The translations under genes and the position numbers were made by a program. From Hyperthermus butylicus DSM 5456 (GTDB lineage: Archaea; Thermoproteota; Thermoprotei_A; Sulfolobales; Pyrodictiaceae), in contig NC_008818.1 of assembly GCF_000015145.1 (NCBI RefSeq), positions 330,001 through 362,000 of the forward strand: a DNA stretch of 32,000 nt, given 5' to 3'. How positions within the stretch are numbered: the stretch's first letter is position 1; each line of letters begins with the position of its first letter. Shown here one piece after another: positions 1-30,385 of this stretch. The notes beneath the pieces are model-generated. The model searched no databases. It was not told the DNA's origin and saw only the letters and a program-made list of their open reading frames with translations.

Positions 1-447
1 TCCCCCGAAGGGTGGAGACAACGAATCATAAACGCCGACTCACAATGCCCCGAGGGACTCTGGTACTTCTTCGCCACAAGATTCTCCAAAGCCTACTACT
101 ATCCCGCAAGCACCTACACCGCCGAAGAAGCATTACAAGCAACAATAGCTCAGACCGGGATCCCAAGCAGAGTATACACCATGGACGACTTCCTCTACAG
201 ACTTGCACGGGCCGGTGCTCCTGCCTGCATCTCCGCAGAATGGAGAGATGCTATAACCCCAAGCTTCAAACTATACGATGTACCAGTCATAGGCGCGAGA
301 GTAACATACTATGAAGATAAGCCAGTCCGAGTAGGACTTATATTTGCAGGCTTTGGTGGCACAACATACAGTAGTGGCACAACATACCGTGAAACTATAG
401 TAAACCCGCAACAACACACATTGCAGAGCCCTATTAATGGAGAATAA
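1..447 (+). CDS. hypothetical protein, 5' end cut by window edge
   Basis: Frame 1 is open from base 1 (SPEGWRQRIINADSQCPEGLWYFF...) and continues through the ORF-track segment 181..447 to its stop. No recognisable motif. Tyr/Thr-rich. Lies in a lower-GC region. Confidence 0.4.
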   Translation, partial: SPEGWRQRIINADSQCPEGLWYFFATRFSKAYYYPASTYTAEEALQATIAQTGIPSRVYTMDDFLYRLARAGAPACISAEWRDAITPSFKLYDVPVIGARVTYYEDKPVRVGLIFAGFGGTTYSSGTTYRETIVNPQQHTLQSPINGE

Positions 448-494
448 AATCGCTCAGTATATATCCCGAGCAGAGGTACTGGCAAGGCTATATA

Positions 495-1037
495 ATGGTT
501 CCAACGATCTACTACCTTCAAGCGGATGGAGTTATAGTGGTATATGATGTTGACCGAGTCTATGACGGTGTTTGCTACTACTATCGTGTAGTGCCAGTAG
601 TAACGTTTATCCCGCTCTACATGCAATATGTAATGGTAATTAACGATGTATATCCGCTGGGAATGCCATTGGATGAGCCTCCACCGGAAAGTTTCAATGA
701 TTTACTATGGAGTCCATATGCCGTTGAAGTACTAAGTAACTATTACACATCCGCTAATGTTGGCCAAATACTCTACGAGGATGTGACTGTTGGAGGTACA
801 GTGTGGGGCGAGGTTGCTGGCGTTGGTACGAACCCACTGAAAACGTATGTTGATGTAGTGCTTAACGGCGTGTTTGGTGCTGTTGGTGAGGTTGGCACGC
901 TTACATCCATATTCTACACCATTATCAGCAACTCGATATCGCATGCAGAGTTTAATGCCGGATTTGCAGCCATAGGAGTAGATATAGTTGTTGAAACAAC
1001 AGCTTCAACATACAATCTTGCTTTATACAGTTTATAA
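495..1037 (+). CDS. hypothetical Val/Tyr-rich protein
   Basis: 180-aa ORF with ATG start and no recognisable motif. Composition suggests a beta-rich protein. About 44% GC by hand count of 481-600. Confidence 0.4.
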   Translation: MVPTIYYLQADGVIVVYDVDRVYDGVCYYYRVVPVVTFIPLYMQYVMVINDVYPLGMPLDEPPPESFNDLLWSPYAVEVLSNYYTSANVGQILYEDVTVGGTVWGEVAGVGTNPLKTYVDVVLNGVFGAVGEVGTLTSIFYTIISNSISHAEFNAGFAAIGVDIVVETTASTYNLALYSL

Positions 1038-1188
1038 GTCTACGCTGCTGGATGCTGCTACGTCGTCCTACATGCCGTTAATCGGCTACTATACTGTTGA
1101 GGTTGGCACGCCCTAAGCTCCTCCGCCGGGTGCGCAGTCGAAAAGAAGCTGTAGGAGCTCCCTGAACTCTTGTGAGGGCTTCTATACT

Positions 1189-1207
1189 GGGTTCACGTTT
1201 TTGAACC
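1189..1207 (+). terminator. candidate terminator hairpin with T-run
   Basis: GGTTCA(1189-1194)/TGAACC(1202-1207) inverted repeat. The loop contains TTTTT (1197-1201). Sits downstream of the 495..1037 ORF. Confidence 0.3.
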
Positions 1208-1298
1208 TTGAAAATCTTTCTTTATATCCCGGCTATATCTTTTGCACACGCTAGACTTTCTATGTGTGCTTCTGGTTTGCTATTCTTCTCGGGGCTGT

Positions 1299-2096
1299 GT
1301 GTTGGCTGGGGAGGACGGGTACGGGATTCCGCGTAGCCACCCGCGCTACTGGAGCCTCGTGATACGTGAGAAGCTTGTCGAGGCTTTCCGCGAGGGCATA
1401 GTTGTACCGCAGGGCCTCATAGCTCATGGTAGGGGTGAGTGCTTCGACTACCTGATAGGCGAGGAGACGCAGCCCTTCGCCCAGGAGGCTATAGAGGCTG
1501 CAGCTGCGGCGCTCCTCCTCGCGGAACACCCTGTGATATCTGTTAACGGGAACACGGCCGCCCTAGCGGCTGAGCACATGGTACGCCTCGCGGAGCTTCT
1601 CGGTGCGCCCCTGGAGGTGAACCTATTCTACCGCACCGAGGAGAGAGCGCGGAAGATAGCTGAGCTGCTAAGGAGGCATGGCGCGCGCCGCGTCCTAGGC
1701 GTCGAGGATGCCACTGCGAGGATTCCTGGGCTGCCGAGCCCGCGGGGGATGGTTAGCCCCAATGGCATCTACCGGGCCGACGTTGTCCTCGTAGCGCTCG
1801 AGGATGGCGACCGCACCGAGGCGCTCCGGAGGATGGGTAAAACCGTTATAGCAATCGACCTCAACCCGCTGAGCCGCACAGCGAGGACAGCAAACATAAC
1901 CATTGTTGACAACATCGTCCGTGCCGCGCCGAGACTCGTAGAGGCCGTGGAGAAGCTAAGGAGCAGGCCGCGGAGCGAGCTTGAACAAATACTGGCAAGA
2001 TACGACAACAACCGCGTACTCTCCAAGGCCCTCCAGCATATAGCCCAGAGGCTAATGAGGCTCGCGCAGATGGGCATAGCTATCGAAATAGGCTAA
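1299..2096 (+). CDS. archaeal phosphopantothenate synthetase (4-phosphopantoate--beta-alanine ligase, COG1701/DUF137 family)
   Basis: The N-terminal block [13 protein letters not shown]...[18 protein letters not shown] is the signature I recognise for archaeal PPS. The longest ORF starts at TTG 1242, but residues before GTG 1299 / TTG 1302 look non-native and TATA-like boxes sit at 1221-1240, so I placed the start at GTG 1299. Confidence 0.7.
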
Positions 2097-2400
2097 TGGG
2101 GCTCTCAGCCTGGGAGGACTACATCACAGAGCCCCGGCTCCTCCATGCTGGGCTCTCAGGGGGCTGGAACTCAGCACCGATAGTGGCTGGACGCCACGTC
2201 TAATTTTGGGTATGTATGTTATTGTTTTGTTCTTAGCTATAACCGTGTTTCTGTGTAAAGTATTTCTCTTGTCGGTCGGAAACTATCAGAGGTGGAGCCC
2301 TAACCCATATCTCCAGGGCCCAATAGATTCCACGTTGAGGGGGTTCGGGGATTACCTTTAGTCCCTCTTAGCGAGGACGTAGAGTGGGGGTAGGGCCGGT

Positions 2401-3282
2401 GTGCCTATAACGGTCGCGCTTACCCATATGAAGCTCAGACCATTAGCCAAGAAGTCTAACCTGGAGAAGGCTAGGAAGCTCGTGAGAGAGGCTGCCCTTA
2501 AGGGTGCTAAGCTCGTCGTACTGCCATCGTTTGTGAATATCGGCCATTTCTTCCTCCACTATCCGAGGACGCGCAGCCGGGCTATCACCAGGAACCAGGC
2601 TGAGCGAATCCCGGGCAATACCTTCGAATACCTCTCCATGGTTGCACTAGAGAATGGAGTCTACATAATCGCCGGCCCCATCATTGAGAGGGCTGGGCCA
2701 AAGATATTTCTCACAACAATGGTTATATCGCCGAATGGGAGCTTGATAGCCAAGTACCGGAAGGTTGCAAGCAACGGTCTTGACGAGGAGCTAGGTATTA
2801 GCCCCGGCAAGCAGACAGTCGTGATAGACGATATTGGTAGGAGTATAGGGGTCATGGCTGAGGACGACATACTTTACCCTGAGATCGCGCGAAGCCTGCT
2901 CCTCGAGGGAGCCACAGCCCTCATCGTAACGCTCCGGCCGGGGGAGGACGTGAATAGGGTTAAGCTCGCCCTCATGGCCCGAAGTATAGAGAACAATGTG
3001 CCTATACTTGCTGTTGGCTCCGTGTTTGAGGCTGCTGAGAGAGTCGTAGAGATCCCGACTATGGTTGTTGATCCACAGAACGGTATTGTGGAAGAGGTTA
3101 ACGAGCCCAACGACACCTACATACTGGTGGAGGTTATGGAGCAGCCATCCAATATCCAGGACATTGTGAGGACTAGCCTCATGGCTAAGGCGCTCGCGCC
3201 AATATACTGTAAGGCTGCCAAGGAGAGCCTCGTAGAGAATCTGGCTGGCCGTCTCAAGGCTGGTAGCAGTGGCGAAGACTGA
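2401..3282 (+). CDS. carbon-nitrogen hydrolase (nitrilase superfamily) homolog with degenerate catalytic residues
   Basis: Family-typical layout: NLEKARKLVREAALKGAKLVVLP.., YRKV (Lys present), IGVMAEDDILYPEIAR. The expected Glu is Ser (LVVLPSF, codon 2527-2529) and the expected Cys is Glu (codon 2860-2862). Confidence 0.7.
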   Translation: MPITVALTHMKLRPLAKKSNLEKARKLVREAALKGAKLVVLPSFVNIGHFFLHYPRTRSRAITRNQAERIPGNTFEYLSMVALENGVYIIAGPIIERAGPKIFLTTMVISPNGSLIAKYRKVASNGLDEELGISPGKQTVVIDDIGRSIGVMAEDDILYPEIARSLLLEGATALIVTLRPGEDVNRVKLALMARSIENNVPILAVGSVFEAAERVVEIPTMVVDPQNGIVEEVNEPNDTYILVEVMEQPSNIQDIVRTSLMAKALAPIYCKAAKESLVENLAGRLKAGSSGED

Positions 3283-3919
3283 GCCCAGCTTCGCCCTCTT
3301 TGAGCGGATGGCTGACCGATACGATACATGGTACGAGCGTAACAAGGTTATTGCGGAGAACGAGGCCCGGCTCGTGGAGGAGTTCCCAGCTAGGCCTCCA
3401 AGTGTTGAAGTAGGAGCTGGCACCGGCTACTTCGCCTCAAAGCTGGGCGTAGACGTAGCTGTAGAGCCCGCACTCTCCATGCTTACGAGGGCCTGGAGAA
3501 GGGGTGTTGAGGCTGTCCAGGCTGTGGGTGAAAACCTCCCGCTAAGGAGCGGCAGCTTCAACACCGTGTACATCATTGTTACGCTCTGCTTCCTAGATAG
3601 CCCAGAGCCCGTCGTGGAGGAGGCCGCCCGTATACTCACGCGTACTGGGAGGCTTGTATCCTGCATCGTGCCACGGGATAGTAGCTGGGGCCGCTACTAC
3701 ACCGAGCTAGGGAGGATGGGTCACCCACTCTACAGTGTAGCGAGATTCTACACTGTCGAGGAGATGAACGACCTCTTCGCAGGCGTGGGCCTAAACCCTG
3801 CGAAGATCATGGGCACATTATCGTTTAAGCCATGGGAGCCCCCGAGACCTGAAGAGCCAAGGCCCTGGAGGCCAGGAGCTGACCTGGGGTTTGTCTGTGT
3901 GGAGTACCGGTGGAGCTAG
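3269..3919 (+). CDS. class I SAM-dependent methyltransferase
   Basis: Motif I VEVGAGTGYFA, followed by a Methyltransf_11-like core. The GTG start overlaps the upstream hydrolase gene by 14 nt, suggesting an operon. Confidence 0.75.
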   Translation: MAKTEPSFALFERMADRYDTWYERNKVIAENEARLVEEFPARPPSVEVGAGTGYFASKLGVDVAVEPALSMLTRAWRRGVEAVQAVGENLPLRSGSFNTVYIIVTLCFLDSPEPVVEEAARILTRTGRLVSCIVPRDSSWGRYYTELGRMGHPLYSVARFYTVEEMNDLFAGVGLNPAKIMGTLSFKPWEPPRPEEPRPWRPGADLGFVCVEYRWS

Positions 3920-6060
3920 CTCCACCAACTATCAGGCTCCGAGGCTTCGCGGGCACCAACTGATAGTATGTCGTCAAGTATTGCTCTCAGCAGCACCGCC
4001 ACCATGCGGACACAGCTGCCGCGATCGCTGCATGATGCTGCGCCCAGAGGCACCCTTACATCGCCATCGTAGCCCAGGCCATGCACCTCACCGTAGAGTG
4101 TTGAGGTTAGCTCGTTAAAGCTTGCCCAGACCTCCCCGTGGACTAGGAGCCGGAGAGCCTCCTCCACCACGTCGCCGGGCACGCTGACGCCAAGGATTTC
4201 GCCAAGGGCATCAGCTAGGTCTACGCTGCGTTCCCCAAGGAGCTTCGCTATCTTCTCCTCGACGCTCCTCCGGTACTCTTCGAGCAGCTTTAGATCCTCA
4301 AGGCTACCCGCCCATGCCTCTACTAGGCTTATGTCTCCACCACTATAGTCTAGCACGCGGTCCCTGAGCCTTATCATGAGGGGCGAGGGGGCTATCGGGC
4401 CAACCACGACAGCCTCGCCGGTGTTCAGGCCGGGAAGGTTCTCTAGGAGGTCCTGGCTTACCTGCTCGCTAGAGTCACGTATAGCCTCCTGGTCCCGGGG
4501 GTTTACGACGCGGAGTATTATCTGGCCCTGCAGCTGGCTCAACACATCCGGGTCTATCTTGCTTGGCCTCTGGCTTATCGCAACAAGGAACACGCCGAAC
4601 TTGCGGCCCTCACTCGCAATCGTAGCCGCCACGTCGCGGCTACGGGTTTGCGCCTTGTTGCGGGGCGGCATGAAGCGGTGAGCCTCCTCCACGACGACTA
4701 CAACGGGGTACGGATAGCTCTCCCCCTCCAAACCCCTAACATACCTCATCCTAGCATTGAATATCCGGAGTAAGATGTTGTATGCTAGGTGGTCCTGCAC
4801 CTCCTCCCTCAGCCCTGCAAGGTTTACCACTGTCACAGTGCCGGGCTCGAGGAGGTAGCTCAGGGGCAGACTCTTAACGCCATAGACCCCTATGCGGCGC
4901 AGCTCCTCCAAATACCTCATGGCCCCGAAGGCTGGCTCCACGTCGCGGTTAAGGGCTAGCCATAGCCTGCGCAGAGCCCTTCCATACTCCTCCTTAGATG
5001 CATCAACCATTTGTAGCTCGGCGTCTATCTCACGTGCATCCCGGCCAGTGTGCTTCGCTGCCTGCTGGGCTATGAGCTGGTTGAAGCGGCGGGCGAATGC
5101 TTCGAGGCTTCTACCCTGCCCCCGGGCTAGTATCGCTGCGTCAGCTGCTGTCTGTACAATTCTTATGATGCCCTTTAGTCCTAGCCATCTCTTCTTGTCG
5201 CCTGTAGCCTCGGCTATGTAGTGGGAGAGCTTCTTCGCTGCGGATATAACGCTCCGTATCTTCGAGGCTTTGGGGGGTACGCGCGCAACACTCATCAGCT
5301 CCTCGGCCGTCATCTGTGCAACGCTAACCTTGTACTGTATGTCGCCCTCCTGATCCCTCCTACCCTTAACAATCCTAACCCTATCCGCGAACGCCGGGCC
5401 CAGCCGGGCTGCAGACCTCTTCATAGCAGTGTATTCTCCGTGAGGGTCGAGGACAACCACCGTGGCGCCCTTCTTGAGCAGCTCCTCTATGAGGATGACG
5501 CTAGCCCATGTTTTGCCTGCACCGGTGGCAGCTATTATGGCTACGTGCCTCTTAAGCCCCTCAACGTCGAGATATGCTGGCACCGTGGGCCTGGATATCA
5601 GCGTGCCTACGTGGAGCCTCCTCCTCTCCTCGACGGAGAAGAAGTCTTCGAGGAGACTGTCCGGCGCGAGGTAGACCCAGGACCCCACGGGCGGAGCCCT
5701 ACGGGGGAGGTATATCCTGTTCCTCCACTTGTAGCCGAGGATCCTTGCAACAGCAACCACTGTATCGCTACCGCGGGGTATACTGAGGTTTCGGAGCACT
5801 GTCCAGGGATGCTCGGGGGTTACGCCGACAGCTAGTCTGCGTATGCTTCGTATCTGTGCGAGAACCTTCACCAGTACCGATGTGTCGGAGCCCGGCGGGG
5901 TTTCAGAGACCTCGACATAAACATAATCGTAGAGCGGCGGGATATTGTTCGGGTCGACTGTAAACACAAAGTAGTCTGGCCTTGAGTCCCCAGTGACCAT
6001 ACCTATGGGCTCTATGGGCCTCTCCTTCCCCTTCAACGGGGTCTCCTCCAATCCCGTCAA
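3916..6060 (-). CDS. HerA/FtsK-like hexameric ATPase (DUF87-type) with about 130-aa C-terminal extension
   Basis: Walker A AIIAATGAGKTWA, then DPHGEY, and Walker B VVVVVEEAHRF. The N-terminal barrel-like region is PIGMVTGDS...FVFTV. TTG start at 6060, with an alternative ATG at 6000. Confidence 0.8.
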   Translation of the reverse strand: MTGLEETPLKGKERPIEPIGMVTGDSRPDYFVFTVDPNNIPPLYDYVYVEVSETPPGSDTSVLVKVLAQIRSIRRLAVGVTPEHPWTVLRNLSIPRGSDTVVAVARILGYKWRNRIYLPRRAPPVGSWVYLAPDSLLEDFFSVEERRRLHVGTLISRPTVPAYLDVEGLKRHVAIIAATGAGKTWASVILIEELLKKGATVVVLDPHGEYTAMKRSAARLGPAFADRVRIVKGRRDQEGDIQYKVSVAQMTAEELMSVARVPPKASKIRSVISAAKKLSHYIAEATGDKKRWLGLKGIIRIVQTAADAAILARGQGRSLEAFARRFNQLIAQQAAKHTGRDAREIDAELQMVDASKEEYGRALRRLWLALNRDVEPAFGAMRYLEELRRIGVYGVKSLPLSYLLEPGTVTVVNLAGLREEVQDHLAYNILLRIFNARMRYVRGLEGESYPYPVVVVVEEAHRFMPPRNKAQTRSRDVAATIASEGRKFGVFLVAISQRPSKIDPDVLSQLQGQIILRVVNPRDQEAIRDSSEQVSQDLLENLPGLNTGEAVVVGPIAPSPLMIRLRDRVLDYSGGDISLVEAWAGSLEDLKLLEEYRRSVEEKIAKLLGERSVDLADALGEILGVSVPGDVVEEALRLLVHGEVWASFNELTSTLYGEVHGLGYDGDVRVPLGAASCSDRGSCVRMVAVLLRAILDDILSVGAREASEPDSWWS

Positions 6061-17997: not shown

Positions 17998-18014
17998 TAT
18001 TATATCAACAATAT

Positions 18015-18076
18015 GGATGATGACCTTTCGGTCGCCCCGAAGCCAGTCTCGGTGTGGACATTTCCTCCCTCTGACC
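18015..18076 (+). ncRNA. candidate C/D box sRNA
   Basis: GG-ATGATGA(18017-18023)-13 nt-CCGA(18037-18040)-12 nt-TGTGGA(18053-18058)-12 nt-CTGA(18071-18074)-CC. The C and D boxes are perfect and the D guide is exactly 12 nt. The C' and D' boxes are degenerate. A 2-bp terminal GG/CC stem is present. Confidence 0.35.
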
Positions 18077-18225
18077 GGGGGGTTCCCACTTGTGGTCCAG
18101 CCAAGATCTATACCATTCACGGTTTACTCGCCACGGTTGCTCTTGCAAGAGTGTTCCAGCGAAAATACGCAAAAACTATAAGTTCACTAACGCTTAAACA
18201 CTACAATGCAACTGTTCCAACAGAG

Positions 18226-18585
18226 GTGAATCGTGGGTTGGGTTTCGGGCTTGGAATAATCGTAACCTTCATTCTCAATATTCTGCTAGGCTGGATACCT
18301 GTCCTGGGTAACCTGCTTGCAGGTATTGCAGGCGGATACGCTGCAAAGAAGGGTGCAGGAGGCGGCTTCCTAGCAGGATTTCTTGGAGGCCTCCTCGGCG
18401 GAATAATCCTTGCCATAGTCGTAACATTGCTTGGCGGAATGTTTGCCGGCCTGGCTGGCGCTCTCGTAGGAGGATTAATAGGGCTCAAATTCGTCGCCGC
18501 GAGTCTAATAATCGCGTTGATCTGTGGTATTGGAGGGCTGATAGGAGGGGCTATAGCTGGGAAGAAGGCCGAAAACCAGCAGTAA
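18226..18585 (+). CDS. glycine-zipper small membrane protein
   Basis: Gly/Ala/Leu/Ile-rich hydrophobic repeats (GIAGGYAAKKGAGGGFLAGFLGGLLGG...GGLIGGAIAG). In-frame GTG at 18226 lies within the sequence GAGGTGA. The upstream 71 codons of the longest ORF (from 18013) look non-native and overlap the sRNA candidate. Confidence 0.55.
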   Translation: MNRGLGFGLGIIVTFILNILLGWIPVLGNLLAGIAGGYAAKKGAGGGFLAGFLGGLLGGIILAIVVTLLGGMFAGLAGALVGGLIGLKFVAASLIIALICGIGGLIGGAIAGKKAENQQ

Positions 18586-18837: not shown

Positions 18838-18899
18838 TGTCAGTACTCAAGACCCTCTTCATTGCTCTTGTTTGCTCTGAAGGCGCGGGGTCATCATTC
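18838..18899 (-). ncRNA. candidate C/D box sRNA
   Basis: Read on the minus strand: ATGATGA(18897-18891)-11 nt-CAGA(18879-18876)-13 nt-ATGAAGA(18862-18856)-12 nt-CTGA(18843-18840). The C and D boxes are perfect, C' has one mismatch, and D' is weak. Confidence 0.35.
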
Positions 18900-18981
18900 T
18901 CCAGCGCTCTATGTGGATGTGTCTGAGGGTTTTTACTTGCTTGCAGCCCGGCTATGTAAGATTACATTTTGGGGTCTATTA

Positions 18982-21693
18982 TTGACTGCTAATGGTCGCT
19001 GTTTTGAGAGTGGATGGTGCGACCTTAGCCCGGAACATGAGAGGATTAGGAGGGAGCTTGAGGGGCTTATCAAGTGCTATGTTGAGGGTTGCGCTGAGGA
19101 GTATTGGATGCCAGTGATTGTTGCACCTTACGGTTCTGGTAAGACTACATTGCTCCGCTATCTTGAAGAGTTTGCTAGGGGACTTGGTGTTGCTGCGCTC
19201 CGTGTAGAGCTTTCGGAGATTGTAGACTTTATCGTGGAGAGGTATGGGACCGTCCATGAGTCTGACCTGCCTCGGGTCATTGAGGAGTTTGCTGCTAGCA
19301 GGCTTGGCGAGTCAAGTGTCTACGTGCTGCTTATTGACGAGGTAGAGGAGAGCTATGACCTGCTACGCGGCGTTGTAACCTATGAGACGTCGCCCTTCCG
19401 CGGCGTGGCAGAGGCTATTAGGACTAGGGCTTCAAGAGCTTATGTTGTCCTTGCTCTCGGTCCATCATCTACACTTAAGGAGGCTGTATTCGGCCCTGTC
19501 GCTTGGCGTAGCCGTATCTACACGTTGCCGTTGCTGCCTAAGAGTGTTATCAAGCGCATGGTTGAGGTTGCTGTCAAGGATGATGCTGACGCCCAGGTTG
19601 TTGAACTGCTAGCTAACATGGTTTGGTGGGCTTCTAAGGGCCGTATAGCATGGGCGAAAATGCTCATAGACAACGTTGTGCCAAGGCTCTACGAGGCTCT
19701 CCTTGCTGGCCCAGAACATGTTGAGGCCCTGCTGCTTGGGGAGGAGGCTCTCGGCAGGGAGATTGTGGAGGGTGTGCCGCTCTTCGACCGCACAGGGTTC
19801 CGTGAGGTTAAGAGGCTGTTTGAGGATAAGGCTCTCACTCCCTTCCTAGCAGTGTTGCCCGGCCCTGTACCAAGCAGCCTACTCTCAAAGCTTACCGGCA
19901 GGGAGGTGCTGCCGGAGCCTAGCCTGGCCGTGGTGTTCTCTAGGACGGTTACGAGTGTTGACGAGCTTGTCGGCGAGGCCCAGGCGTGGATGGAGAGGTT
20001 TGCTAGGGCTCGTGGCTATGGAATGCAGAGTGTGGAGCACGCGTTAACAGCGCTTGAGCACGTCGTAGCCGCCTGGAGCCTTGACGGCTGGGTCGTGTTT
20101 GAGCCCCAGGCCCTAAGGGAGCTCTTCAGCCTAGCCGCTGACGTCGCCCGCGAGGTCTACGCGGATGACCCCCATGCTGCCCAGCTTCTTGAGTCGCTTA
20201 ACCCTGACCTTCTCGCGCCAAGGGTCGAGAGGGGGAACGAGGTATATGTTGCGCTGAGGCCTTCGAGCATTGCGAGGCTCTACCCCTCGGCGGGCAGTAG
20301 CCCCCTAGTGGGCTGCGCACGTAAGGCTGGTGCGCGGCAGGTTGTAGAGGTTGTTGAGAGCCTCTCCCTCGACGAACTCGTAGACTATAGTGGCCGTGTC
20401 GCAACCCTCACCGGCGCCGACCGCGTACTGGAGCGCCGCGAGCTGCAGCTACTACTGCTGCCGGCTAGGCTCGCCCAGGCCTATGCCTCAGAGCTAGCAT
20501 GCAGGATGGCCGGCGGGGAGAGGCTGCTGGTACTCCTACTATCCCCCAACGGGCGCGGCTCCGGCATCCCCGGAGGGCTCGAGGCCGCTGCGAGGCTCAC
20601 CGGTTCAATAGTCGCGGAAGCTGGGCCTAGGCTCAGCATGTTCCTCTACAGCCTCCTCTACGGCTACGCCGTGGGCACCGAGGGCTGCAGCCCCGAGAGT
20701 CTAGCAGGGCCAGACCGCAGGGTGTTGAGGCTCTATGCGGAGCTACTACGCAGCCTCGTGCTCGACTCGCTAGCCGAGCCGACTGGGCCGGCGAGCAGGG
20801 TAGCCGCCTCCGCAAGGCTCCTCGAGGAGAGGTACCCAGCGCTGGCCAGCCCTGCAGCCTACACTGTCGCAGCCGGCGGCGGGGCAGCAGGACATGCCGA
20901 GGAGGTTCTCAAGCAGCTCACACAGCGGGTCTCCAGCATCGAGGCTGGGGCCATAGAACTGCTGGGGAGCAGGAGCTGGGACACGCCCGGACTCGAGGAG
21001 CCTCTGGATGCGCTGAGGGAGGCCCAGAAGCTCTACCAACTAACTGAGGAGGAGGGGCTCCTTGAGGCTCGCAACATAGCAGCAGGCTGCAAGGCCACGG
21101 GTATACCGAGGGTGCTAAGGGTGCTCCTGGGCTTCGAGGAGCCACCACCGCCCCCGAGCCTTGAGAGGGCCGGTGAGGTGATAGCGAGGCTTGCAGCTGC
21201 GGCCCGCGAGCTACCACGTGAGGGGCCGCTTGGGAGGCTGGCCGAGCTAGCCAATGAGGCCGAGGCTATCCTCCAGGCCCTGGAGGACGCCATCCAGAAG
21301 CTCCGTGGGGCTGCTGGGCTCCTGGAACCCCATGTAAGGGTGCTGGAGGCCGCTGTCTCGGCCCTAGCCGAGAAGGCTGCCGCGGTAGCGAGGCTCTACG
21401 CGGCTGTGAGTTCCAGCATCCAGAAGCTCCCAGACACACTGCGGTCCAGAGCTGAGGAGGCAGTGGCCGCAGATCTAAAGCAGCTCAACACGCTGGACGA
21501 TGTCGCAGCATACATGGAGCGGGCTGTCCAGGCACTGGCGGAGCTTGTGGGGCTCGCTGAGAGACACGAGGCGTTGAGGCTTGAGAAGCTGCGTGGAGAT
21601 CTCCTCTCCAGGCTAGACACGATTATTTCTAGCCTTGAGGGCGGCGCGCCTGCCAGACAGGAGAAGGCTGAGGGTGAGGCGCTGGCAGGGTGA
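18982..21693 (+). CDS. large P-loop NTPase (AAA+/ORC-like or BrxC-like N-terminal ATPase) with about 700-aa helical C-terminal region
   Basis: Walker A APYGSGKT (19123-19146) and Walker B VYVLLIDEVEE (19318-19350). The C-terminal two thirds are Ala/Leu/Glu/Arg-rich helical sequence with a PPPPP linker. The start is uncertain: longest ORF at TTG 18835, TTG 18982 chosen here, or ATG 19108 preceded by GAGGAG (19096-19101). Confidence 0.7.
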   Translation: MTANGRCFESGWCDLSPEHERIRRELEGLIKCYVEGCAEEYWMPVIVAPYGSGKTTLLRYLEEFARGLGVAALRVELSEIVDFIVERYGTVHESDLPRVIEEFAASRLGESSVYVLLIDEVEESYDLLRGVVTYETSPFRGVAEAIRTRASRAYVVLALGPSSTLKEAVFGPVAWRSRIYTLPLLPKSVIKRMVEVAVKDDADAQVVELLANMVWWASKGRIAWAKMLIDNVVPRLYEALLAGPEHVEALLLGEEALGREIVEGVPLFDRTGFREVKRLFEDKALTPFLAVLPGPVPSSLLSKLTGREVLPEPSLAVVFSRTVTSVDELVGEAQAWMERFARARGYGMQSVEHALTALEHVVAAWSLDGWVVFEPQALRELFSLAADVAREVYADDPHAAQLLESLNPDLLAPRVERGNEVYVALRPSSIARLYPSAGSSPLVGCARKAGARQVVEVVESLSLDELVDYSGRVATLTGADRVLERRELQLLLLPARLAQAYASELACRMAGGERLLVLLLSPNGRGSGIPGGLEAAARLTGSIVAEAGPRLSMFLYSLLYGYAVGTEGCSPESLAGPDRRVLRLYAELLRSLVLDSLAEPTGPASRVAASARLLEERYPALASPAAYTVAAGGGAAGHAEEVLKQLTQRVSSIEAGAIELLGSRSWDTPGLEEPLDALREAQKLYQLTEEEGLLEARNIAAGCKATGIPRVLRVLLGFEEPPPPPSLERAGEVIARLAAAARELPREGPLGRLAELANEAEAILQALEDAIQKLRGAAGLLEPHVRVLEAAVSALAEKAAAVARLYAAVSSSIQKLPDTLRSRAEEAVAADLKQLNTLDDVAAYMERAVQALAELVGLAERHEALRLEKLRGDLLSRLDTIISSLEGGAPARQEKAEGEALAG

Positions 21694-21698
21694 TAACC

Positions 21699-21830
21699 AT
21701 GTACGCGGTTGAGCACCTGGTTGAGGAGTACCGTGTGAGCCTCGCAGACGCCGAGGCTAGGGCCGAGAAGCTAGCCTCAATGGGGAGGCTGCTGGACGCC
21801 ATAGAGGGGCTCGCAGCCCCTGCTCCCTGA
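21699..21830 (+). CDS. possible 43-aa small protein
   Basis: ATG lies 5 nt after the NTPase stop. Hand translation gives MYAVEHLVEEYRVSLADAEARAEKLASMGRLLDAIEGLAAPAP. It is below the ORF-track size cutoff and looks helical. Confidence 0.3.
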   Translation: MYAVEHLVEEYRVSLADAEARAEKLASMGRLLDAIEGLAAPAP

Positions 21831-21865
21831 GGGCCAGCCGCAGCGACATAGTCTACGAACTCCGT

Positions 21866-22822
21866 ATGGCCCGTGACTACCTCGCCGCGGGCAGCTACGA
21901 GGAGGCCGGGGCGAGGCTAGAAGCAGCTTGTAGGAGGGCTGTCGAGCAGCTAGCCGCGACGATAGCCTGGAACGGCCTCACCGCCGAAACCTGCCCGGCG
22001 CCACGGGCGGTGCAGCTGCTAAAGGCTATCCTGGAGGCTAGTGGGCCGCTGGCAATGATTATACACTCGATACTAGCAGCCGGCGTGGAGAAGGCAGACG
22101 ATGTAGTACACAATGCTGAGAAGCTTGCTCCCCACTGGGGCTCAGTTGCTGAGAGGCTGGTAGACGTCTATCGGGCGGCGAAGCTGCTGGAGAAACGGGG
22201 GCTGATAAAGTGGCCTGATACGGTCGTGCTGGTCTCAAGGCTTGTCCGAAGCGAGAGCGTTGAGGAGGCCATTGCGAGGCTCGAGAGGGTCTCTAGGCGC
22301 GTATCAGAGATAGCTGGGCTCATGGACTCGATAGCCTCTAGCATGAGCGAGGTAACAGAGGCGACGCTAGCTTGTAAAGAGTACAGCGCGACGCTAGGCG
22401 AGCTACCCTACTGCAACTGGTTATCCACACTACTATCCGAGATAGTAGCAGCGCAGGATGCTGTAAAGGAGCTACCACAAATAGCTAGCGTGGAGAAGCT
22501 AGATGCGACAGCCGAGACGGTTAGGAAGGCATACGAGAGGCTCAACAACTCCCGGAGGATCGTAGAAAAGCTCCTAACAAGGCTCTCCCAGAGCCTAGAC
22601 ATGAAATTTGAGGGTGAAAGCCTGGTAGCAGCAGTAGAGGCGCTATTCCAGGCGCGAGCCAGGCTGGGCTTCACGGAGCTAGAGGAGGAGCTGATGATAA
22701 AGCTCGGCGAGGCTGATAGGCTGGACCTTGCCGAGCTAGCTAGCAGCAATCCAGCATACATCGACGCAGCACTGAACCTCTGCAAGCACGGAATAGCCTT
22801 CTGCGAGGTAAGACTGTACTAG
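21866..22822 (+). CDS. all-helical hypothetical protein with PaREP1/HEPN-like N-terminal pattern
   Basis: The N-terminus ARDYLAAGSYEEAGARLEAACRRAVEQLAATIA resembles the helical-bundle opening of PaREP1-type proteins. No Rx4-6H motif is present in the sequence. Confidence 0.55.
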   Translation: MARDYLAAGSYEEAGARLEAACRRAVEQLAATIAWNGLTAETCPAPRAVQLLKAILEASGPLAMIIHSILAAGVEKADDVVHNAEKLAPHWGSVAERLVDVYRAAKLLEKRGLIKWPDTVVLVSRLVRSESVEEAIARLERVSRRVSEIAGLMDSIASSMSEVTEATLACKEYSATLGELPYCNWLSTLLSEIVAAQDAVKELPQIASVEKLDATAETVRKAYERLNNSRRIVEKLLTRLSQSLDMKFEGESLVAAVEALFQARARLGFTELEEELMIKLGEADRLDLAELASSNPAYIDAALNLCKHGIAFCEVRLY

Positions 22823-22885
22823 CACACAGCAGCTGCCAGATAAATAACACACATTCCTAATCCCCCTACTAGTTTTGGGGATCAC

Positions 22886-23242
22886 GTGTTGGCGGCTAGT
22901 GGGCTGAGACAACTACTCATATCCAGCGGACTCTGCAGCAAGGCCGTAGCTGTAGAGGAGACAAGTTCGTGCACCCTGCTCTTCTGCGAGTCCCGGGTAA
23001 ACATGCTCATAGCCTTCTCGACCTATGATGACTGGGTCTACATTAAGGCTGTCCCAGAGCTTGCTGTGCAACCCCACATGTGGCATTGCAATGAGGTCTA
23101 CTACACACCATACGGCCTCTACGCCTTTGCGAAAAGCCACAGGGAGCTTATAGAGAAGCTGAAGGCGAAGCAACACCTACTAGCTGCACAGCACAAGCTT
23201 GCAATCGAGAGGCTTAGCGCTATAGAGGAGGCAGGGTTCTGA
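22886..23242 (+). CDS. hypothetical small protein
   Basis: 118-aa ORF from GTG 22886, or 79 aa from the internal ATG (MLIAFSTYDDW...). It has a C-terminal amphipathic helix and no recognisable motif. Confidence 0.4.
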   Translation: MLAASGLRQLLISSGLCSKAVAVEETSSCTLLFCESRVNMLIAFSTYDDWVYIKAVPELAVQPHMWHCNEVYYTPYGLYAFAKSHRELIEKLKAKQHLLAAQHKLAIERLSAIEEAGF

Positions 23243-23263
23243 GAGGAGGGAGGCGGGGTAGGC

Positions 23264-23965
23264 TTGTCTGATACACGTAACGATTACCGGATACTGGTAG
23301 CCGAGCATGCAGTTTCGCTTCTAGAGAATATTGTTCGTGCCCGCCGTATACCCATACCGGTTAATTGGCATGAAGTCGAAGCCCTTGTCTCCGAGCTACG
23401 CTCGCTGATTGTAAGGATAAAGTACAGCTTCATACCGCCAACAATGCTCGCGGGATCCGAGGAGGTTGAAAGGGTTAGGGAATACGCTGGAAAGCTGGCA
23501 AAAACGCTGCTCTCAAAGGAGCGCCTCGCTGGAGCAAAGCTAGACTCGAAGACAAGAATGGCTATTGCTGAAGCTCGCTACGCGCTACGCACCCTCTATG
23601 GTCTGGGGTATAGGCTCTCACTGGGCGATGAGAATGACGCGCTACACGCTGTTGATATTGAGTGTGTTGAGGTGCTTACTATAACAAAGCATCCAAGCGC
23701 AGAGAAGCTCTTCGTTACAAGGGCTCGCGGGGTACTAGGCTACACCATTGTAACCAACCTACCCGACGTGAGGAAGGGCGAACTGCGAGCCGCAGCAATA
23801 CTACCCCCACGGGAGTTCTACGGCGAAATAAGCGAAGCCATGTATTGTAGCGGGCCACTAAACACCGATGTCTGCAAGCCTGGCCGAAGGCCCCCTGCAA
23901 ACCTTATCGATAGGGGTAGTGTGGAGGCTGTAATCTACAACATAGTTGGGAGAAAGGCTAGGTAG
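23264..23965 (+). CDS. protein with C-terminal tRNA-binding OB-fold domain (Trbp111/CsaA/EMAP-like)
   Basis: KHPSAEKLFVTRARGVLGYTIVTNLPDVRKGELRAAAILPPREFYGEISEAMYCSG matches the KHPnAdKL...G..SeGM pattern of tRNA-binding domains. The about 130-aa helical N-terminal extension is unassigned. TTG start preceded by a GGAGG-rich sequence. Confidence 0.65.
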   Translation: MSDTRNDYRILVAEHAVSLLENIVRARRIPIPVNWHEVEALVSELRSLIVRIKYSFIPPTMLAGSEEVERVREYAGKLAKTLLSKERLAGAKLDSKTRMAIAEARYALRTLYGLGYRLSLGDENDALHAVDIECVEVLTITKHPSAEKLFVTRARGVLGYTIVTNLPDVRKGELRAAAILPPREFYGEISEAMYCSGPLNTDVCKPGRRPPANLIDRGSVEAVIYNIVGRKAR

Positions 23966-24082: not shown

Positions 24083-24871
24083 TTATATTAATATATGACT
24101 ATCACTTATATGTATGTGGCGTGCGACTGGTATTGCCGCTTCACCATAGACCTTGCGGAGGATTTCTACGCGGAGCACTTCCGACGGCTTACCGTGGGCT
24201 ACTATCCTCTTGTTGACCAGTACAATGTAGTCCGTGTAGTCTATTAGCAACATCGGGTCATGACTCGTGACCACTATGAGCTTGTCCTTGGCAAGTTTTG
24301 CTATGAGGCGGGCTAGCTCACACCTCCCCTGGGGGTCTACGGCGGAGAAGGGCTCATCCATAAGCAATATCGGTGGGTCGTGCACCAGTGCGCGTGCTAT
24401 GAGTGTCCGCTGTCTCTGCCCGCCACTCATCTTGGATATCGGCTTCGACCAGGTCTCGCGTCCTAGCCCGACTTGTCTCAGCACAGCCTCTACCATAGTC
24501 TTGTCCTCTGCACTGGCTAGCAGGCGTGGCTTCTTACCGATTCTGAGGAGGTATTCGAACTCGATGAGCTCCCAGCTGGTTACCGGGAAGTGGGTAAGCG
24601 TGCGTGCCAGCTGGGGCACGTAGCCTGTAAGCCTACCTGCCGCTGCAGGGTTGCCCGTAACGTCCCTACCGCAGACGGTGACCCTACCTCGTAGCGGTTT
24701 TATGAGACCAAGTATCGTCCGGATTAGCGTGGTCTTCCCGGCACCGTTGGGGCCTAGCACCTGGACTAGTGCTGGACCCCGCAGCTCTAGATGGTCTACA
24801 ACTAGCACCGGATCGCCGCCATAGCTTACGGCTACGTTGTCGAGTACTATGCTTGGCTCTCTACACTCCAT
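24083..24871 (-). CDS. metal (Zn/Mn/Fe-type) ABC transporter ATP-binding protein
   Basis: Walker A GPNGAGKTT, signature MSGGQRQR and Walker B ILLMDEP. I preferred ATG 24871 (MECREPSIVLDNV) over the longest-ORF start at 24895, which would run into the promoter repeats. Confidence 0.85.
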   Translation of the reverse strand: MECREPSIVLDNVAVSYGGDPVLVVDHLELRGPALVQVLGPNGAGKTTLIRTILGLIKPLRGRVTVCGRDVTGNPAAAGRLTGYVPQLARTLTHFPVTSWELIEFEYLLRIGKKPRLLASAEDKTMVEAVLRQVGLGRETWSKPISKMSGGQRQRTLIARALVHDPPILLMDEPFSAVDPQGRCELARLIAKLAKDKLIVVTSHDPMLLIDYTDYIVLVNKRIVAHGKPSEVLRVEILRKVYGEAAIPVARHIHISDSHILI

Positions 24872-24888
24872 CCTAGGGCTACCCCAGC

Positions 24889-24932
24889 TGTGCACAGTTA
24901 ACTAGAAACCCTTATATAAGGTGTGCACAGTT
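24889..24932. promoter_or_regulatory. bidirectional promoter: palindromic TATA box flanked by two 11-nt direct repeats (candidate operator)
   Basis: TGTGCACAGTT occurs at 24889-24899 and again at 24922-24932, 33 bp apart. The repeats bracket CTTATATAAG (24911-24920), which is its own reverse complement. The element lies between the divergent ABC ATPase and substrate-binding-protein genes. Confidence 0.5.
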
Positions 24933-30307: not shown

Positions 30308-30385
30308 GGGCCCGTCGTCTAGCCTGGTTAGGACGCCGCCCTTACACGGCGGAGGTCCGGGGTTCAAATCCCCGCGGGCCCACCA
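30308..30385 (+). tRNA. tRNA-Val: tRNA-Val (anticodon UAC), CCA encoded
   Basis: Hand-folded cloverleaf. Acceptor stem GGGCCCG/CGGGCCC, D stem GTCT/GGAC, anticodon stem CCGCC/GGCGG with loop CTTACAC, T stem CGGGG/CCCCG with loop TTCAAAT, discriminator A, then CCA. Confidence 0.9.

Follow-up and report, generated by a model that had tools for sequence, protein, structure and literature searches.

A two-gene AAA+ ATPase module in Hyperthermus butylicus as a candidate reduced form of a defence-associated ATPase-partner pair

An AAA+ ATPase and its split helical partner

The genome of Hyperthermus butylicus DSM 5456 (contig NC_008818.1 of NCBI RefSeq assembly GCF_000015145.1) was analyzed in a window of 32,000 nucleotides (nt) which covers the positions 330,001 to 362,000 of the forward strand. 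Window positions given below are counted from its first letter. The window possesses five co-directional plus-strand open reading frames (ORFs) at 18982-21693, 21699-21830 (ATG start; 21690 if an upstream GTG is used), 21866-22822, 22886-23242 and 23264-23965. An earlier reading of the sequence alone (the original prediction) had proposed them as one undescribed five-gene system headed by a large P-loop NTPase. The gaps of 5, 35, 63 and 21 nt that it gave are exact, and its boundaries also hold, as about 400 nt of non-coding DNA precede the ATPase gene and a convergent ABC-ATPase gene follows at 24083-24895 on the minus strand. Alignment with relatives indicates that the five ORFs represent four genes, one of which is split by a frame disruption. 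The first two of these genes, an AAA+ ATPase and its helical partner, are the main subject here. For the comparison, 42 loci were fetched (L numbers below) and compared by tblastn. Orthologues of gene 4 and of the partner were drawn from these loci, as the word-indexed homologue search gave only two matches for each.

The first ORF (18982-21693, plus strand, TTG start) encodes a protein of 903 amino acids (aa) annotated as hypothetical protein. The Walker A APYGSGKT, the Walker B VYVLLIDEVEE and the PPPPP run noticed earlier were all found in it. An N-terminal W-C-D..E-H motif is also present, and the Walker A and Walker B motifs occupy residues 48-55 and 116-123. Among 33 homologues, K54, D119-E120, W175-R176 and R221 are invariant. 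W175-R176 is at the arginine-finger position and R221 is situated within the lid, while S162/S163 at the sensor-1 position is nearly invariant in the same homologues. The protein thus has the P-loop core, Walker A and B motifs, sensor 1, arginine finger and helical lid of the AAA+ superfamily. As this catalytic set is complete, including the invariant arginine at the arginine-finger position, the ATPase would be expected to work as an oligomer. Compared with a metagenomic relative whose ATPase is 87% identical, the ratio of nonsynonymous to synonymous substitution rates (dN/dS) is 0.097, which indicates strong purifying selection.

An AlphaFold2 model built on the 33 homologues (predicted local distance difference test score, pLDDT, 87.8; predicted template modelling score, pTM, 0.69) showed three parts. 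The N-terminus is composed of a hairpin and a helix followed by the AAA+ core with its lid, up to about residue 258. The middle part contains winged-helix-like and α/β domains up to about residue 575, and the C-terminus is an all-helical stalk of residues 577-885. The original prediction had described about 700 aa of helical sequence after the NTPase domain, which does not agree with the mixed α/β domains of the model; only the stalk is all-helical. In Foldseek comparison against PDB, about 280 N-terminal residues matched FtsH, p97, RuvB and PAN with probability 1.00, and the remainder of the protein had no match. Sequence searches of PDB with the ATPase, with the 318-aa protein of the third ORF and with the profiles A5 and A7 gave compositional coiled-coil matches or none.

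Pfam, NCBIfam and PADLOC gave only sub-threshold P-loop matches for the ATPase (AAA_22, AAA, BrxC_BrxD, BrxD and ORC-CDC6-like). AAA_22 rose above threshold in one homologue, P0029 (30.6 bits against a cut-off of 27). PADLOC-DB v2, scanned with the ATPase, the partner and gene 4, returned weak P-loop or coiled-coil matches only (BrxD at 0.0037, mad8 and LmuB).

In the 87%-identical relative (L005), positions 308-316, at ATPase codon 33, read TAA where H. butylicus has TAT, and the ATPase gene is called 42 codons short. This stop is either real or an error; coverage of the contig is 5.6x.

Pyrodictium delaneyi, P. occultum and several metagenome-assembled genomes (MAGs) have a single gene behind that of the ATPase, whose product is a partner protein of 367-375 aa. 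In H. butylicus, an ORF of 46 aa aligns with the N-terminus of this partner protein and the ORF of 318 aa aligns with the rest. The N-terminal fragment (43-46 aa, 21690-21830, plus strand) begins with a GTG at 21690 which overlaps the ATPase stop codon (GTGA), or with the ATG at 21699, and the C-terminal fragment occupies 21866-22822 of the same strand. In RefSeq the pieces appear as two hypothetical proteins, one of 43 aa (WP_267195211.1, window 21699-21830) and one of 318 aa. The original prediction had likewise counted the 43-aa ORF as a gene of its own. The alignment argues otherwise, and the 87%-identical relative reads through the junction in one frame (...SIEGLVSLLPEASRSDVIYVLRMARDYLAAG...), so that this ORF is the N-terminus of a partner gene of about 370 codons. 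WP_267195211.1 and ABM80232 should be annotated as one frameshifted gene.

The disruption was located by DNA alignment to 21813-21835 of the plus strand. Two nucleotides at about 21815-21832 are additional to the sequence of the intact relative; frame 0 ends at the TGA of 21828-21830 and the homologous reading goes on in the -1 frame. Against the same relative, the flanks on the two sides of the junction showed dN/dS of 0.26 and 0.065, which indicates purifying selection. Since both flanks are under such selection, the lesion is either a sequencing error, or of recent date, or tolerated with the protein in two pieces. Programmed frameshifting at GCT CCC TGA was considered and rejected. There is no slippery heptamer, a -1 shift is needed, and a +1 slip at CCC_UGA leads to the wrong frame.

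The 318-aa fragment is predicted to be all-helical and ends in E-E-L-L..L....L-D-L-A-E-L......L-C..G-I..C-V. The C-terminal motif (...LDLAEL......LC..G...C.V) is common to the partners of this short form and of the helicase-PLD form described below, and may represent a winged helix. No family of Pfam or PADLOC matches the partner. The resemblance of its N-terminus to a PaREP1/HEPN-like bundle, suggested earlier, was not borne out, as the Pfam scan gave no such match, the limit being E<=1 for the H. butylicus protein and E<=0.05 for six orthologues.

Linkage of the pair and its flanking genes

The ATPase and partner genes adjoin in every locus long enough to tell. This holds for the short form (903 aa in H. 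butylicus), seen here only in Pyrodictiaceae-like genomes, and for the longer relatives of 1000-1170 aa. The distance between the ATPase stop and the partner start ranges from an overlap of 11 nt (L004) to a gap of 6 nt (L001). Because the partner start overlaps or nearly abuts the ATPase stop, the two genes are probably translationally coupled and their products may form a complex. The gene orders compared here thus point to a two-gene module, AAA+ ATPase and helical partner, as the conserved core. The tight co-directional packing of the original five-gene cluster is real. The single unit is not, since only the ATPase and partner are always linked. Scattering of the genes in related genomes, which was to speak against the cluster, was found in part: the positions of genes 4 and 5 vary and the pair stays together.

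Gene 4 (22886-23242, plus strand) encodes a small protein of 118 aa. It had been described as a protein of 79-118 aa with no recognisable motif. The 118-aa length is retained, and comparison of nine orthologues with 59% column identity revealed a clear four-Cys/His signature of C17, C29, C34, H67-C68, PHMWHC and PYGLYAF. The invariant residues in these orthologues are C17, K19, E24, C29, C34, W50, K54, E58, M65-W66-H67-C68 and P75-Y76-G77, and this conservation suggests a metal site. A start giving the 79-aa form was rejected, since the N-terminal 40 residues, which include three invariant cysteines, are conserved. A single-sequence AlphaFold2 model (pLDDT 81.6) showed a small α/β fold with a long C-terminal helix, which had no significant match in PDB or among viral structures. 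The homologue in L042 (31-354) has lost several of the conserved Cys/His residues (PHMWHC is changed to TTAWTC), and the one in L038 keeps all of them; both loci lack the pair at the slot.

These features raise the possibility that ATPase, partner and gene 4 form a minimal but active three-gene immune module, in which gene 4 would replace helicase and nuclease as effector or regulator. Gene 4 adjoins the pair in about 10 loci and was found only where the short form occurs, and the high conservation of its four Cys, His, Lys and Glu would fit a functional role of this kind. Its arrangement fits less well. Co-direction with the pair is limited to the window, to L001 and L030, and to L003, which among the short-form loci is the most divergent; in five loci (L002, L008, L009, L010 and L015) the gene is situated on the opposite strand. 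L014 and L016 have the pair with no gene 4 beside it, and at least three contigs (L036, L038 and L042) have gene 4 but not the pair. Gene 4 matches no known nuclease or toxin fold, and a TATA-like element of its own (ATAAATAA) lies about 40 nt upstream of its start. The downstream neighbourhood is also syntenic across genera as a whole, comprising ABC ATPase, ZnuA, ABC-3 permease, NikR, phosphatase (PTP) and Lon genes, and adjacency alone is therefore weak evidence of function. A three-gene module of this kind is considered improbable, although it is to be taken seriously as a competing reading. Gene 4 is a frequent neighbour of the pair whose membership in the module is unproven.

Gene 5 (23264-23965, plus strand, 233 aa) was predicted to join a helical N-domain to a tRNA-binding OB fold, and both were confirmed. 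It matches Pfam PF18489, the N-terminal helical domain (1.2e-39, 135.8 bits against a cut-off of 32.4) and, below the cut-off of 27, tRNA_bind of EMAP/Trbp111 type (9e-05, 22.9 bits). Residues 1-196 align with PDB 2e8g, the PH0536 protein of Pyrococcus horikoshii, at E 5.7e-25. By these matches gene 5 is assigned to the PH0536 family; its annotation is 'RNA-binding protein, C-terminal EMAP domain'. A literature search on 'PH0536' gave nothing relevant. The adjacent position of gene 5 is confined to the window, L001, L030, L036 and L038, which represent H. butylicus, two species of Pyrodictium and two contigs of Pyrodictium-like type. Its TTG start is preceded by a Shine-Dalgarno-like run (GAGGAGGGAGG). 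Taken with the TATA-like element of gene 4, this run suggests that genes 4 and 5 are probably transcribed separately from the ATPase and partner. Gene 5 is thus best regarded, on its distribution, as a neighbour of the ATPase module and not a part of it. A fifth gene for a universally conserved stand-alone tRNA-binding protein with an independent promoter was also to speak against the cluster. The stand-alone and conserved nature of its family agrees with this in part, and its adjacency is limited to the Hyperthermus/Pyrodictium clade.

The gene 5 data bear directly on the defence or translation-surveillance system of five ORFs first envisaged, in which an NTPase sensor would act with a HEPN-like protein and a tRNA-binding protein. 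Tight co-directional spacing in H. butylicus and the two Pyrodictium species and the OB fold of gene 5 speak for it. The 43-aa ORF is a gene fragment, the partner gives no PaREP1/HEPN signal, of about 13 short-form loci only 3 have a PH0536-family gene beside the pair, and genes 4 and 5 persist together where the pair is missing. Comparative gene order therefore largely refutes this system, and we regard it as very improbable.

The upstream non-coding stretch had been suggested to carry small RNAs (sRNAs), and a canonical archaeal C/D-box sRNA was indeed identified on the minus strand at about 18839-18900, a short distance before the ATPase gene. It is composed of a C box (AATGATGA), a 12-nt guide (CCCCGCGCCTTC), D' AGAG, C' ATGAAGA, a second 12-nt guide (GGGTCTTGAGTA) and a D box CTGA, with a promoter-like GTAAAAACCC at about 18925-18935 in minus-strand sense. 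Rfam sR5 gave 15.5 bits only. The boxes and both guides are kept in nine loci with 80-92% nucleotide identity, far above that of the flanking genes. This sRNA marks one side of the slot of the short form, with gene 4 on the other side. In L036 and L038 the sRNA lies directly upstream of genes 4 and 5 with no ATPase or partner between, and in L042 it abuts a divergent gene 4 with no pair at the slot. Because the sRNA abuts gene 4 without the pair in these three loci, the pair can be regarded as a dispensable cassette, with genes 4 and 5 independent of it.

Two ordinary neighbours were also recorded in the window. A glycine-rich predicted membrane protein of 190 aa is encoded at 18013-18585, just before the non-coding stretch, and a tRNA-Val(TAC) gene is situated at 30308-30385, downstream of the Lon gene.

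The wider ATPase family and its resemblance to known defence systems

A profile search of 1.84 billion representatives yielded 264 proteins at E<1e-10. The family accordingly comprises at least 264 representative clusters, each of which stands for sequences grouped at 50% identity. The wider-family members are mostly of 1000-1190 aa and share the motifs W.DL..H, YGSGKT, LL.DE.E..Y, PLR, AFG..S.YE and NF.WW.SRGR.GW. In 42 sampled members, Pfam, NCBIfam and PADLOC gave generic AAA or coiled-coil models only, with ATPase_2 (PF01637) matching nine of the 42. As judged by these profiles, the ATPase belongs to a large family which has no Pfam, NCBIfam or PADLOC model, and to that extent the original designation of the locus as undescribed is upheld.

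Two operon contexts were distinguished among the more distant relatives. The helicase-PLD context was found in L004, L006, L022 (a Pyrodictiaceae MAG), L023 (Culexmicrobium), L024 (Vulcanisaeta) and L025 (Caldivirga). Here the long ATPase and a partner of 370-430 aa are followed by three more genes. The first encodes a DEAD helicase of about 1000 aa (PADLOC DpdJ 1.9e-31 and DrmA 2.5e-15; NCBIfam DpdJ 3e-27), the next a protein of about 850 aa which matches the middle of DpdJ, and the last a PLD nuclease (DpdK 3.5e-11, DrmC). The second context is represented by L028 and L029. Here an SNF2 helicase gene (HmaA 3e-71, DrmD 6e-68, BrxHII, DpdE) comes after the genes of the ATPase and of its partner, which is of about 510 aa, and genes for C5 methylase, HhH-GPD glycosylase, TIR-LRR, HEPN_Swt1 and HinfI lie in the surroundings. 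The HhH-GPD glycosylase and C5 DNA methylase form a conserved pair directly downstream on the opposite strand (L028 17308-19508, L029 15027-17223) and may be part of the SNF2-context system. One family member, in L031, lies beside BrxB and BrxC.

L004, an archaeal hot-spring contig, also carries a minus-strand gene set (263-4657) divergent from its ATPase-partner-helicase-PLD operon. The set is composed of a TGT-like protein, a 316-aa ATPase matching BrxC_BrxD, a 212-aa protein of unknown function and a 626-aa TGT+DUF6884 fusion. The locus has the appearance of an archaeal locus for base modification and restriction of Dpd-like type.

The gene order of the long-form operons resembles that of the Dpd system, which contains 'DpdHI/BrxC', the YprA-family helicase DpdJ and a PLD nuclease, and for which uncharacterised Dpd-like classes have been mentioned (Bell et al., bioRxiv 10.1101/2025.09.15.676423); the supplements of that work do not mention these archaeal genera. 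Annotated bacterial plasmids show the order dpdG-dpdH (1030-1070 aa)-small protein (235-280 aa)-dpdJ, and on a plasmid from Deinococcus dpdJ is in two pieces (1027 and 736 aa) with a PLD gene after them. The archaeal long-form pair is built like DpdH and DpdI, from an NTPase of about 1000 aa whose P-loop (Walker A) is N-terminal and a small helical protein after it, and lies directly upstream of a split DpdJ-like helicase (about 1000 and 850 aa) and a DpdK-like PLD protein. The gene order and sizes of the bacterial Dpd operon, including that of the Deinococcus plasmid, match those of the archaeal long-form operon, and L004 has TGT-like genes alongside. In contrast, the H. butylicus locus lacks DpdJ, DpdK, DpdE and deazaguanine genes. 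The DpdH models of NCBIfam and PADLOC do not match the ATPase family.

BrxC and PglY share with this ATPase a large size, an N-terminal P-loop and a C-terminus which is long, helical and free of any enzymatic effector domain. The sub-threshold matches of the BrxC_BrxD and BrxD models to the P-loop, and the position of relatives in defence islands, add to this likeness. BrxC_BrxD (PF10923) reached E 0.11 and 11.8 bits on the ATPase against a cut-off of 22.2, and no PglX methyltransferase, PglZ phosphatase or BrxA/B was found in the window or in any short-form locus. The proposal of a BrxC/PglY-like and possibly defence-related ATPase was therefore a good lead, as judged by the operon position and defence islands of the relatives; BrxC membership by sequence did not follow.

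The winged-helix-like domains behind its AAA+ core and lid also place the ATPase in the neighbourhood of ORC/Cdc6, PF01637 and STAND proteins. However, ORC/Cdc6 proteins are of about 400 aa, whereas the ATPase and its relatives are of 900-1170 aa, with about 300 aa in a helical stalk, and the partner gene is obligate. The ORC-CDC6-like model gave E 0.18 over 18 residues, and Cdc6_lid and WHD_Cdc6 did not match. For nSTAND_NTPase5 the best score, obtained in homologues only, was 24.6 bits against a cut-off of 34, and unlike typical STAND or Avs proteins the ATPase has neither an N-terminal effector nor a C-terminal repeat sensor. In the SNF2 context, wider-family members followed by a DrmD/HmaA-like SNF2 helicase beside a C5 methylase resemble Hma and DISARM class 1. 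The ATPase matches neither HmaC nor any PADLOC model, and such genes are not present in the H. butylicus locus. The expected kinship of the ATPase domain with BrxC/PglY and ORC profiles was thus found at the level of the P-loop and did not extend to membership of BrxC/PglY or ORC/Cdc6. As profile comparison finds the P-loop only, the family is a positional, and probably also a functional, analogue of DpdH/BrxC, and membership in those families is not demonstrable by the profiles used.

Origin and possible role of the short form

Taking the contexts together, we lean towards the view that the short-form pair is a reduced, dispensable derivative of a defence ATPase-partner module. In a neighbour-joining tree of the N-terminal 520 residues, all 16 of the 16 short-form ATPases were grouped in one clade nested among long forms. 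The Pyrodictiaceae short form would then have lost helicase and nuclease from a long-form ancestor module, and would either work with unlinked effectors or have been repurposed. Because the long-form pair holds the operon position of DpdH-DpdI in Dpd and of BrxC/PglY in BREX, the pair may be proposed, as the most likely role, to act as an ATP-driven, nucleic-acid-bound sensor or scaffold which controls partner enzymes. Dispensability of the short form is suggested by the frameshift in H. butylicus, the in-frame TAA in its relative and the empty slot in some lineages. The stop and the frameshift together may also be signs that the module is decaying in the Hyperthermus lineage.

The same data can be read in terms of housekeeping. 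The pair would then be a chromosome-associated or structural ATPase complex of Pyrodictiaceae, with a role for example in DNA organisation, and its similarity to defence ATPases would reflect shared ancestry only. Across genera the pair keeps one chromosomal position with the same downstream synteny, the short forms form a single clade which roughly tracks taxonomy, and dN/dS is about 0.1. No effector enzyme is linked and no ATPase relatives were found on viral contigs. The long helical stalk of the ATPase and the winged-helix-like end of the partner would suit such a complex as well. An essential role is argued against by the H. butylicus frameshift and the stop codon in the close relative, and in L036, L038 and L042 the slot lacks the pair. 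Moreover, all the more distant relatives examined are situated in helicase/nuclease operons or defence islands. A housekeeping complex is on balance considered unlikely, though it is a serious competitor of the defence reading.

Several observations weigh against derivation from a defence module. The short form occupies a stable chromosomal neighbourhood and not a variable island, which is unusual for immunity genes and fits housekeeping equally well, and tblastn found no helicase, nuclease or methyltransferase at the H. butylicus locus in the window. Profile comparison by hhalign of A5 and A6 with a five-sequence DpdH alignment gave probabilities of 3-11%, and all the DpdH comparisons 3-24%, at the P-loop only; against a BrxC sequence, 44 residues at the P-loop were aligned with a probability of 26%, and the partner compared with a DpdI alignment gave 0.5%. 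The neighbour-joining tree carries no bootstrap support. Absence of the pair in L036, L038 and L042 concerns that slot and not whole genomes, the frameshift of H. butylicus could be a sequencing error, and the stop of its relative could be an error at 5.6x coverage. The sensor or scaffold role itself is drawn purely by analogy.

Derivation from a defence module is retained as the preferred reading with these points in mind. A wider proposal, which we put forward only tentatively and regard as rather doubtful, is that the pair represents a new and widespread family of control modules for immune operons, an analogue of BrxC/DpdHI without detectable sequence kinship. The Pyrodictiaceae form would in that case be either an exaptation kept for hundreds of millions of years at one slot for a host DNA function or a new minimal defence system with a four-Cys protein.

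Within BREX-, Dpd- and DISARM-type immunity, no components are less well understood than large effector-less ATPases such as BrxC/PglY and DpdH. The family described here appears to be a separate unannotated ATPase family in the same operon position, combined with two different helicase types. At the level of annotation, the 43-aa and 318-aa proteins of H. butylicus are corrected to one split gene. The natural 'ATPase-only' form in the cultivable hyperthermophiles Hyperthermus and Pyrodictium offers a simple system for asking what such ATPases do alone, and the stand-alone pair would exemplify an immune module which is either decaying or repurposed.

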